Assembly: GCA_964016885.1 (NCBI GenBank)
Contig: OZ024749.1
Coordinates: 46,748,001 to 46,812,000, forward strand
DNA length: 64,000 nucleotides
From: Eledone cirrhosa
Taxonomy: Eukaryota
Direction: 5' to 3'
A program made the translations under genes and the position numbers. Each line of letters opens with the position of its first letter. The first letter of the stretch is position 1. Under the pieces are notes generated by a model, which saw nothing but the letters and a program-made list of their open reading frames with translations, had not been told where the DNA came from and ran no database searches. Below are positions 25,783-60,536 of this stretch, piece after piece.

Positions 25783-25970
25783 AACGAAGGAAATGTGGTA
25801 AGGAACCATATGGACCATAACGTACCAAAGTACTCAATACTTAGGGTAGTTGAGTGGGTAATAGGATCGAGTAGGACCCAGAATCAGAGCTCAAGCCGTT
25901 TCGACGGCTAATTCTGGACTAGCCGTCGAAACGGCTTGAGCTCAGCCGTCGGGGTCCTACTCGTTCCTAT
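25783..25970 (-). mobile_element. Fold-back half-hammerhead element (family P), copy 1
   Basis: Palindrome 25861-25970 containing GAAAC-GGCT-tgagctc-AGCC-GTC (25928-25950); ~80-bp unique tail 25783-25860 shared with the other three copies; (TA)n flanks. Confidence 0.88.
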
Positions 25971-27891
25971 ATATATATATATATATATATATATATATAT
26001 ATATATATATATATATATTATTGTTATTTATTTATGCTTCAGACAAACCTGTCCGACCCCACCCACACACGTATACATATATAAATATATATATTTATCT
26101 GTGTGTATGTGTGTGTGTGAATATATATATATTGCAGTACTATTTCGAGTGAATTACTTCTCATTTTATGTGTATATATTCGTCGAAAAATATAATATTG
26201 AATAAGTTATGTTTTGAATACATAATCATTTTTTTTTTTTAATTAAATTTTGGAATATTACCATTACTCTCTATATAATAGTAGACCTGAAAATCTATTC
26301 ACAGTGTCTAGCCGCCAATTTTATCTGAAAATGCCCGAATAGATGTCTTTACAAGCTGCTAAGTATCATTTCTATTTTCAACAGAACACATCCGAATACA
26401 AACTGAATATCCTGGGATCCAGGTTTGTGACTAATATAATTATCAGATACAGATTAAAGCATAATTGAATACAGCAACGAAAAATACCTGAAGTTATGTT
26501 TGCATCAGAAATTTAATATATACTACGCCATTTGTTTCAAAATATATCACGCTGAAATAATGCTGGTTAAAATACAGTAGCAAACGAACAAGTAACACAC
26601 CCGCAAACACACAATCTTTTATACATAATAGTACATCATATACATATAGCAACGTATTTAATCATATCTTCGGCACACACTGTGAATAGAGTACCTTGCG
26701 GCATAATATGACTTTGTATTGTACTATGATATATTTTCTTCGTATAATTGAAATATCTCTATAATGAAACACGTCTGTGGATGTAGGTATATAAGGAAAC
26801 CCGCTGGATCATATCCGCAATTTAGTTTATTATCAAAAGTAAATTATTACATGAAACGATGCATGATGGCAGAAAACTGCTACACAGTAACTGAATACAA
26901 CCAAGAATTATTTCGTGGATATCAACGTGGCACAGAGATGATAATTGTTGTGGATGCAAATCATTTCGATATCAAAGGAAAGGAAATAGCCATTAAACAA
27001 TATATGAGTCTAAACGACATTGGATCATACTTATAAAATATTTCGTTCGATATTTCCTATGAAAGATAGGGCAGAATTGAGGCATTGTCACATAATCGAG
27101 TGGAAAAAAAACCCGTTTTACATCGTAAACTGCATATAAGGATATATATCTTTCTGTAGTGTTATACTCTTAAACGTTGGTATCCATCGATGTTATTAAG
27201 ATTTGTAAGGAATCAATGACTATAACATGGACAACGCGTCTCTGAACTGGAAAGGCTTATCAAACGGCTATTTGAGAGAGAAAACGTTATGAGTTAATGA
27301 AATACAAAATAGTTACATGCATCTGAACATGTTTATCGATTACTCAAGCATATTTCTTTATAAGGCAATTTCCGACCACACAATCGTAATTTACACGAAA
27401 TGTCACTTAAACCTATTACACGGAAATTATTAAAAAATACTCCTTACAGATTGTTTACGCAAATAAACAATAAATGAGTAAGGGAAAAAAAATCAATGCG
27501 TATTTAAGTCTATATGTGGATTACAAAAGAAGGAAATGGGTTATTACAACAAAAAAATATTCTTAGTAAAAATGATAATGATGGTAATAATGACTAGGGA
27601 TTTGGGAATATCGATGATGACGATGAGGATGATGATGATATTGTATATAATTATGGTGATGATAAAGAAAATGCTTCAGAGATGTTGGTAAAGAAGAACG
27701 TGATGCTTGTTATTACCATGTCAAATCTGAAAATGATAATGGCCTGGATGGCGGCAAATGTTTGGATGGGTGTTAGGATGATTAGGTTGATGGTTAATGG
27801 TTGATGGCGTACCGTTTACGGACGCTTTAGCATCCCACACCAATTATATATATATATATATATATATATATATATATATATATATATATCG

Positions 27892-27940
27892 CTCTATCTC
27901 CAACTTATTTTTGAAAAAAAATAGAAATGCGCAACCGGTG
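27892..27940 (+). mobile_element. Decayed third copy of the U3-A8 HHR repeat (family Q)
   Basis: ctctatctccaacttatttttgaaaa...gcgcaaccggt aligns to 39093-39140. Confidence 0.55.
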
Positions 27941-28176
27941 AAACCTTAAAACTAAAACTGAATACTAACTAATACTTATTACTAATTTATACTTATTCCT
28001 AATTAAACTATTTCTCACTGGGAACAAATTGTCAGCATTTTATTTTCCTTTTACTAATACATATATATATATATATATATATATATATATTTATATATAC
28101 GTGTGTGTGTATGTGTGTGTGTGTAAATGCATTTCTATTAGTGCATAATAATTAGTTTATTTAAGCATAGATATAT

Positions 28177-28615
28177 GTATACATACGTATAGTAGTATGT
28201 ATATACATACATGCACACACATATATATATATATATATATGTAGGTATGGGTTTACCGAACATTTATTATAATGCTCGGTTTGTTTGTAAACAAACAGTT
28301 TATTATGTATATTCCTTATGCATATTAACGGCTGCTCAGCCGTTAACATGCATAAGGGACGTATATACTTTCAAACGTTCAATTAACTGACAGGTAGGTA
28401 TACGGTGCTGATGACAGATAATAAGCTAGAAACTAGTTCCTCGTTCCTTTGTCAGTGTTGAACAAAATGGCAACGATGGTTGTCGAACACAGTGCGGCTA
28501 ATAATTCAGCTGTTTGTTTACAAACAATCCAAGCATTTTAATAAATGTTCGGTAAACCGATACGTATATATATATATGGGTGTGTTTATATGCATACTAC
28601 TGTACGTCTGTATAC
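28177..28615. mobile_element. Long inverted-repeat element with a central HHR
   Basis: Inner arms 28246-28298 and 28510-28562 (gtttaccgaacatttatta...gtaaacaaacag and its reverse complement); pairing continues outward through the (TA)n tracts to about 28177/28615. Confidence 0.8.
28402..28444 (+). ncRNA. Minimal type I hammerhead ribozyme motif
   Basis: acggtg-CTGATGA-cagataataagcta-GAAAC-ta-GTT-cctcgt; palindromic stem III ACTAGT; stem I pairs at 5 of 6 positions; weak stem II. Confidence 0.6.
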
Positions 28616-59426: not shown

Positions 59427-59570
59427 GTGAAAAAAACCACAGACCCTCCATCTCAACTCTACTTTTGAAAAGCGGAAGAACAGCGAAACCGGTAGAGGAA
59501 CCAAATAAATATATATATATTTTTTTGAAAATAAAACTCCAGTTGCATTTTCGATTTCATCTTTTTTTCT
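59427..59570 (+). mobile_element. HHR-bearing repeat (family Q), copy 2, embedded in (TA)n
   Basis: Paralog of 39076-39216; HHR actt-TTGAAAA-gc...gc-GAAAC-cg-GTA-gagg at 59461-59498, then AATAAA. Confidence 0.85.
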
Positions 59571-59634
59571 CTCTCTCTCTCTATATATATATATAGACAT
59601 ACACATGTATTTATCAATATAAGTGGTACGTGAA

Positions 59635-59980
59635 TATATATATATATATACATATACATGTATATACATACATATGTATATATATATATATATATATATA
59701 TATATATGTGTATACATATATGTATATATATATATATATATATATTATATATATATATATATATATATATATATATATATATATATATATATATATATAT
59801 ATATATATATATATATATATGTATATGTATATATATATTTATATATATATATATATATATATATATATACATATATATATATATACATATATATATATAT
59901 ATATATATATATATATATATATATATATAATATATATAAATATATATATATATATATATTATATATATATATATATATAA
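59635..59980. repeat. Long interrupted (TA)n
   Basis: Read directly; source of the 271-aa pseudo-ORF. Confidence 0.96.
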
Positions 59981-60359
59981 ATACATGTGTGTGTGTGTGT
60001 ATGTGTGAGTGTGTGTGTGTACGTATGTACATTTATGTACTTTTCGAAATCGAAAAGACACTATATTGAAAAACCTAAATAATAGATTCGATACGATCGA
60101 GAAAATATATGATGTTGATATCATGACACAGTTCTTATGATTTAAACCTGAAAAAGGAAAAATATAACATGGGTGTCCATACCCACCCCAAAAGATAACA
60201 ACATACCAATACCTCTCTATCCCTCTCTGTCTCTCTCTCACAAATACACACACGCGCAAACACATCAGACACACTCACTGTATATAAATATATGTATATA
60301 TATATATATATATATATATATATATATATATATATATATATATATATATATATATATAT

Positions 60360-60536
60360 GAGTAAGTAAGACCCCGACGGCTGAGGTCAAGCCGTTTTGA
60401 CGGCTAATTCCGTCGAAACGGCTTCAGCTCAGCCGTCGGGGTCTTACTTACTCCTATTACCCACTCTACTACCCTAAGTATTGAGTACTTTGGTGCATTA
60501 TGGTCCACCTGGTTCCTTACCACTTTTCCCTCGCTA
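60360..60536 (+). mobile_element. Fold-back half-hammerhead element (family P), copy 4
   Basis: Arms gagtaagtaagacccc/ggggtcttacttactc; GAAAC-GGCT...AGCC-GTC at 60415-60437; shared tail; (TA)n flanks. Confidence 0.88.

Follow-up and report, generated by a model that had tools for sequence, protein, structure and literature searches.

We analysed four palindromic repeats, here called family P, in a 64,000-nucleotide stretch of the Eledone cirrhosa genome (contig OZ024749.1 of GenBank assembly GCA_964016885.1, positions 46,748,001 to 46,812,000; this whole stretch is referred to as the window). The palindromes are best read as head-to-head insertions of a Penelope-like element (PLE), in which one capped mRNA, copied from two fixed sites, templated the extension of both strands of a (TA)n target, each copy running off at the RNA's first base. 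We give this reading somewhat less than four chances in five. The observations behind it are a parent element with an open reading frame (ORF), a whole ribozyme motif in that parent, fixed outer ends, a common stop of the arms, extra bases at the stop, variable joins and a rule by which arms are paired.

All four copies lie where an earlier sequence-only reading had placed them (Table 1; copy 1 is on the minus strand), are flanked on both sides by (TA)n and are built in the same order: (TA)n, an inverted arm, a variable centre, a direct arm, a tail of about 80 nt and (TA)n. That reading had described an approximately 80-bp common tail with an inverted arm, a different centre in each copy and the 3′ half of a hammerhead ribozyme (GAAAC, stem III, GTC, GGGGTC) in at least one arm of every copy. 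Each of these points was confirmed; in copy 3 the motif is confined to the inverted arm. The window copies hold only this 3′ half, and a sequence check found no CTGANGA within any of the four, which agrees with the earlier statement that CUGAUGA is lacking. The centre of copy 2 is 40/42 identical, over 39369-39410, to flanking DNA, and no other match occurred among the loci sampled. In copy 3, the G at 52033 is either the final base of the inverted arm or a cap-type extra G of the tailed arm.

Collecting copies with the tail as query, as had been proposed, was productive: exact matches to a 26-nt motif of the tail number 40,211 in the 3.0-Gb genome against 0 for the reversed control, giving at least 40,211 family P tails genome-wide. 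Among the first 100 tail matches listed (C1), nine run upstream into common sequence. Locus L124 contains the parent: besides an inverted copy and a partial tandem, it has a 719-codon open frame (L124:6480-8636) whose ATG is at +232, counted from the point where the arms stop. Its protein carries RWR, DKT, YRDD, CxCX5C, VIY..YIG (GIY-YIG-type), CxxC and CxH motifs. The closest ESM Atlas clusters score 0.97-0.99 and carry GIY-YIG or HTH_animal families; comparison of the protein with Pfam and with PDB gave no match in either.

[quoted passage not shown] Because the L124 motifs and the (TA)n target match the description in that source, where Hydra-clade PLEs are said to target (TA)n, we assigned the element to the Hydra clade, a placement made by motifs. 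Judged by sequence, the four palindromes are stubs of an autonomous Hydra-clade PLE. The likeness to that clade (PMC8557442) covers RT with C-terminal GIY-YIG, DKT, the CxCX5C linker, CxxC, CxH, the (TA)n target, a pLTR hammerhead, the inverted 5′-truncated copy and the one-end tail. Family P differs from it in having RWR as a variant of RWK, a unit of approximately 3.1-3.6 kb instead of <3 kb, a tail of about 82 nt instead of 30-40 nt, a ribozyme core that is mostly U3-A8, and about 9/10 of its arms ending at one point.

Fixed outer ends, TA flanks and a high copy number would also be shown by DNA transposons bounded by fixed terminal inverted repeats, such as a miniature inverted-repeat transposable element (MITE). 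However, the tail is one-sided, the centres vary and long copies continue into the RT-GIY-YIG element. This alternative, which the sequence-only reading had itself raised, is refuted by the coding parent, and we leave it practically no chance. Two other identities were rejected. A non-LTR retrozyme consists of tandem non-coding units with a whole hammerhead in each (according to the available text of bioRxiv 10.64898/2026.07.22.740005), whereas each stub stands singly, has no 5′ half and goes back to a parent that is coding. An origin as a tRNA- or Pol III-type short interspersed nuclear element (SINE) was judged by eye and dropped once the coding parent turned up.

Both arms of family P end sharply at TYA(+1)GTC, within loop II of the hammerhead. 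Genome-wide, 60,695 arms reach +7, 22,353 reach +1 (counting only the subset with non-T at −12) and 6,042 reach −10, close to the 5,614 matches of the ribozyme 5′ half further upstream. When 102 sampled arms reaching +7 were followed, 84 stopped within −4 to +7, nine stopped at −5 to −39 (six of these nine are −6 calls, possibly partner-arm artefacts) and nine read on; long read-through copies make up about one arm in ten. Contig depth goes up approximately tenfold at +1 in 3/3 runs of one sample and down more than 100-fold past the tail; these runs (X1-X3) are contigs of unrecorded type and give copy depth only. In older subfamilies the loop is different and GC-rich and TTAGT is retained; in the few cases inspected by eye, short arms end at about this point too. 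A TATA-like box lies at −29 in young subfamilies. The stop TYA(+1)GTC fits what we take to be the initiator consensus, and the −29 box presumably corresponds to a TATA element. A splice acceptor at TTTAG/TCC was considered for this point and dropped, since many arms keep AG with the upstream T and no recurring foreign exon was found in the 100 rows listed.

It is conceivable that long inverted insertions were trimmed later and homogenised by arm-to-arm gene conversion, the alternative named in the sequence-only reading. Copies 2 and 3 do show internal deletions between repeated motifs, and young subfamilies are AT-rich upstream of +1. Against this, arms joined to other families and solo arms have the same stop, the latter directly in (TA)n and some with an extra G (L005, L016, L112, L323, L325), and shared variants are subfamily-wide. 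We consider such trimming very improbable.

Extra bases also occur at the stop. In 2,536 arms −2 is non-T and −1 is a purine, a setting in which neither purine can be templated; among the first 100 of them listed, sorted by eye, 81 have G and 19 have A at −1. Without 46 rows in which the partner arm could give the G, approximately 35 G stood against 15 A (p=0.007). By comparison, read-through copies have T 29, C 1 and G 0 at −1 (n=30). The extra base is found on both arms, as GGACT-C-(A/T/none)-G-AGTCC, in 9/20 loci that had been picked for the feature; in others it abuts (TA)n or the tail. T runs at the stop exceed the parent's, up to about 18-26, which fits untemplated A on the cDNA. At four loci (L096:4532, L230, L255, L330), 13-26 T (A on the other strand) lie directly before +1, as if RT tails run-off cDNA.

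Family P arms show an untemplated 5′ G at a promoter-like start, as copies of a capped RNA polymerase II (Pol II) transcript would, and capped full-length L1 inserts are marked by an extra G in the account of PMC11702581 available to us. We infer that the stop is a Pol II start with a TATA-like box and an initiator, and that the cap is read as an extra C. Comparable starts are on record for other PLEs in the available text of PMC2377424 and PMC3846280: transcription of Penelope starts inside the pLTR, as proposed here for family P, rotifer pLTRs have TATA and initiator-like motifs, and palindromes are described at inverted junctions.

A sister family, S, repeats the pattern at a different place. 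Its protein is about 50% identical to that of family P, and its arms (10,359 pattern matches) stop at CCA(+1)GATT with TATAAATA at −30; the extra G was seen here too. Family S has a canonical CTGATGA core, and its arms stop where stem I starts (L283-L312, e.g. L285 and L297; also L020, L098, L122 and L140). Its mRNA would start with the whole hammerhead, unlike that of family P.

This bears on the possibility that priming was two-sided and that the stop reflects stalling of RT in loop II, at an RNA structure or a bound protein. Immediately upstream of +1 the RNA can form an inner hairpin (GC-rich in older subfamilies), and the spread of ends from −4 to +7 is compatible with stalling. By that point, however, RT has already passed the stronger stems III and II, and the hairpin is AU-rich in young subfamilies. 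Stalling does not predict the extra G, which is absent from 30/30 parents, and family S stops elsewhere in structural terms, yet again at a TATA(−30)/initiator. We regard stalling as unlikely.

The outer ends of the palindromes are also fixed. Site B lies at +58 and site A at +140, about 82 nt apart and both between the hammerhead and the ATG. B ends (18,015) and tail-continuing arms (19,167, from a pattern that catches almost solely such arms) occur at approximately 1:1. For the analysis of pairing, 96 and 95 of 100 listed rows were entered, with off-type rows or rows beyond the shared range omitted. Opposite the 95 B ends entered, a tailed arm was present in 57 cases and a second B end in none; one tail-to-tail insertion (L088) occurred among the first 100 tail matches listed. 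Short pairs had the same subfamily on both arms in 49/52 cases, against 20.8 in shuffles (maximum 34). Joins in 53 two-armed copies were made with filler (27), with microhomology (14) or blunt (12).

The sequence-only reading had correctly seen the palindrome as made anew at each insertion, and had explained it by a single cDNA that snaps back on stem II and primes its own inverted arm. Several observations are what snap-back predicts: arms usually share their subfamily, some joins show microhomology, and the tailed arm reaches further 5′ in 20/53 copies, as fold-back requires (later deletions could shorten a tailed arm). A fold-back arm cannot hold sequence absent from its template, yet there are copies in which the tail-less arm reaches at least 5 nt further 5′. 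These number 16/53, or 13 when the parsing artefacts L061, L080 and L109 are removed, and in nine more of the 66 parsed copies the tail-less arm is accompanied by hardly more than a tail. At L232 the tail-less arm runs about 60 nt upstream and the other arm begins inside the tail; later deletion may explain some of these cases. The outer end of the tail-less arm is fixed and is shared with direct long copies, untemplated bases occur on both arms, and copy 2 took its centre from DNA lying 2.5 kb off. Some arms are solo, and others stand head to head with arms of other PLE families (L031, L033, L034). The untemplated ends on both sides and these hetero-family joins already contradict snap-back. 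Nor is the join at stem II, where the palindrome had been thought to be centred: as read-through copies show, arms stop about 30-40 nt downstream of its 5′ strand. The variants once taken as private to single copies did not hold up, as that of copy 4 recurs in L053, L057, L090, L096 and L135, and the two arms of copy 2 differ at the place quoted as shared. We consider snap-back highly unlikely. Self-priming on an antisense RNA has been proposed for PLE inverted junctions, and is favoured, in the available text of PMC3846280; in contrast, the family P data indicate that the template was a capped sense RNA and that there were two primers.

Joins to other families, which are rare, were seen at L031, L033 and L034, all from a biased set, and at L041, L049 and L057; L033 and L034 contain GIY-YIG frames. 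Hetero-family joins of this kind imply two different RNAs at one target.

The read-through copies contain the half of the ribozyme that the stubs lack. They begin the motif with ACCCC and a core of 7 nt, continue with stem II and its loop (about 35 nt), and then read GAAAC, stem III, GTC and GGGGT; they have the layout of a type I hammerhead, with three stems, a core with a 3-8 pair and a GUC site. The earlier identification of the arm motif as the 3′ half of a PLE hammerhead was borne out, as the whole motif is present in the parent, where it is likely a hammerhead. The 5′ half has 5,614 genome matches, at about −55 to −29, and the cores of the first 100 listed were, by eye, TTGANAA (76), CTGANAA (20), TTGAAGA (2), damaged (2) and CTGANGA (0). 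An older subfamily has 453 matches, of which three among the first 100 listed read CTGAGGA, and L213 represents a clean canonical C3-G8 core in that subfamily. A master copy with the 5′ half, as foreseen, does exist in the form of the parent; the exact form expected, gacccc-CUGANGA-gacggc, is absent in 45/45 matches. None of these 45 is a canonical CTGANGA parent beside a young arm (they are fillers, mutated arms and cores of other families), the core is mostly UUGANAA, and the 5′ strand of stem II reads GNTCGGCTA in read-through copies, not GACGGC. Seven of the 45, with CTGAWGA directly before GTCC, were considered as a possible master and dropped, since read-through copies read otherwise.

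On 31 copies, the named structure leaves 91.8% of cells paired and has 33 two-sided changes against 14.7 in shuffles, with 0/500 shuffles reaching 33. The L124 motif is predicted to fold as a three-way junction, and RNA folded from +1 is predicted to prefer a hairpin that buries GAAA. Covariation to U3-A8 is a known variant of PLE hammerheads in the available text of PMC4209133, and family P shares that core. It differs from the hammerheads described there in its long stem II and loop II with a likely promoter, and in having C3-G8, U3-G8, U3-A8 and C3-A8 all in one family.

A young subfamily with a C3-A8 mismatch core is widespread (L076, L170, L171 and 17 more of 100 rows listed), and its spread suggests that cleavage may not be needed for insertion. 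A few arms end close to where the ribozyme is predicted to cut, at about +41 to +43 (L069, L074, L066, L087, L110, L139). They may be copies of cleaved RNA or deletions, and as a sign of self-cleavage would be suggestive only.

Based on these observations, we propose that the family P mRNA is transcribed from a Pol II promoter within loop II. A promoter so placed would leave this mRNA without the catalytic 5′ half of the ribozyme and unable to cleave itself, while a read-through RNA would hold the whole ribozyme and yield the long copies. The enzyme would bind the mRNA near its 5′ end and nick both strands of (TA)n, and a protein dimer would prime both, at +140 on one side and at +58 on the other. 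One RNA, or one source, would serve as template for both cDNAs. They would run off at the cap with lengths of 140 and 58 nt and lose a few bases before host end joining fuses them head to head. The half-hammerhead would be merely the part of the element downstream of the start site, and long copies could arise via read-through RNA, a circle or a strand jump.

The closest biochemical parallel is Poseidon PAc. In the available text of PMC11167929, this PLE protein cuts and extends both strands in vitro, two internal RT start sites define the tail, and a dimer is modelled; the target is AT-rich as in family P, and 5′ shortening of the RNA shortens the product. Unlike PAc, family P has sites that are used strictly one of each and has left genomic run-off copies, likely of capped mRNA; stubs of this kind are not described for PAc in that text. 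Family P also resembles L1 twin priming as presented in the available text of PMC11702581, where a second primer at the other target end gives a 5′ inversion and an extra 5′ G occurs. For L1 the two cDNAs cover different parts of the RNA and the second site varies, whereas in family P both sites are fixed and both cDNAs copy one 5′-terminal stretch.

Several points weigh against our reading. A search of RNA runs listed none that contains the element, and start site, cap and self-cleavage are read from DNA; the G:A ratio comes from by-eye sorting of 100 listed rows. Arms with the extra G are in the minority (over 22,353 arms reach +1, and 2,536 have the non-T/purine pattern), and a T that may be templated or untemplated ends many arms 1-4 nt upstream. 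The genome counts at the stop come from patterns that differ in length and subfamily cover, and their roughly tenfold step is approximate. Older subfamilies lack the TATA-like box, and their GC-rich hairpin ending near −4 could stall RT. Under the model, one RNA would serve two RTs over a common stretch of 58 nt. In the available text of PMC11167929, the PAc start sites lie in the ORF and have no target homology, while those of family P are in the 5′ untranslated region and both share TAT with the target. Regarding the ribozyme, the number of pairs with a two-sided change is only 4, reached by 197/500 shuffles, fold z-scores of −0.42, 0.11 and 0.05 are not significant, and RNAalifold recovers stem II but not the full junction. 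Of 100 long copies listed, 20 have the C3-A8 mismatch core. Among the best 150 of 186 Rfam matches listed for the window there was no hammerhead, nor was one returned for the parent motif or for three older loci, for which the long loop II and the variant core may be the explanation.

Table 1. Parts of the four family P palindromes in the window (positions from the first nucleotide of the window; numbers with a plus sign count from the putative transcription start)
Feature	Position	Strand	Remark
Copy 1 tail	25783..25861	-	stretch separating the two putative RT start sites
Copy 1 tailed arm	25862..25919	-	from about +2 of the putative transcript; stem III/I partly replaced
Copy 1 tail-less inverted arm	25920..25970	+	hammerhead 3′ half intact; its end is site B, within (TA)n
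Copy 2 tail-less inverted arm	39335..39370	-	reaches +1/−1; stem III lost between repeated GACGGCT
Copy 2 centre	39369..39407	+	patch copied from flanking DNA, window 41931-41969
Copy 2 tailed arm	39408..39465	+	A(+1) to site B
Copy 2 tail	39466..39546	+	ends at site A in (TA)n
Donor of copy 2 centre	41931..41969	+	2.5 kb from copy 2, in flanking DNA
Copy 3 tail-less inverted arm	51980..52033	-	
Copy 3 tailed arm	52034..52068	+	starts at A(+1); stem III deleted
Copy 3 tail	52069..52150	+	
Copy 4 tail-less inverted arm	60360..60410	-	reaches +7
Copy 4 tailed arm	60410..60454	+	from +14; overlaps the inverted arm by 1 nt
Copy 4 tail	60455..60536	+	subfamily variant common to L053, L090, L096 and L135

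Palindromes of this layout are general in the Eledone cirrhosa genome. A further PLE-type palindrome, with a tail of 68 nt and related to an element in L033, lies at 1046-1327 of the window. In 1.25 Mb of sampled loci, 221 of the 1,292 segments between (TA)n runs were hairpin-type inserts; 120 of these were family P, for which the loci had been selected, and many other families supplied the rest, most of which have a tail of about 45-180 nt on one side only.

Element class, layout, U3-A8 core, pLTR promoter, inverted copies and tails are already known for PLEs, and the origin of their inverted repeats and tails is named as an open question in the available text of PMC8557442. Outside subscription journals and supplements (those of PMC8557442 may list the family), we found no report of cap-terminated PLE palindromes in the literature. 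A promoter that splits a ribozyme, together with a capped run-off end, was likewise not found in print, and the term 'strong-stop' does not occur in six papers listed for it. A further reading, which we hold less likely than not, is that PLEs form a cDNA like the strong-stop cDNA of retroviruses: primed close to the mRNA 5′ end, a 58- or 140-nt run-off product would have to jump to the repeated pLTR at the RNA 3′ end or meet a ribozyme-made circle to yield a full copy, and family P would represent failed jumps joined head to head. The promoter within the hammerhead would then act as a switch, by which mRNA stays uncut and read-through RNA cuts itself.

In conclusion, the extra G on one or both arms, one-tail pairing and subfamily-matched arms in tens of thousands of natural products favour two primers and a sense capped RNA as the origin of these palindromes. 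Family P offers exact sites (+1, +58 and +140) and an open reading frame. PLE start sites would be readable from genome sequence alone, and repeats that look like MITEs or SINEs can be run-off products of PLEs.

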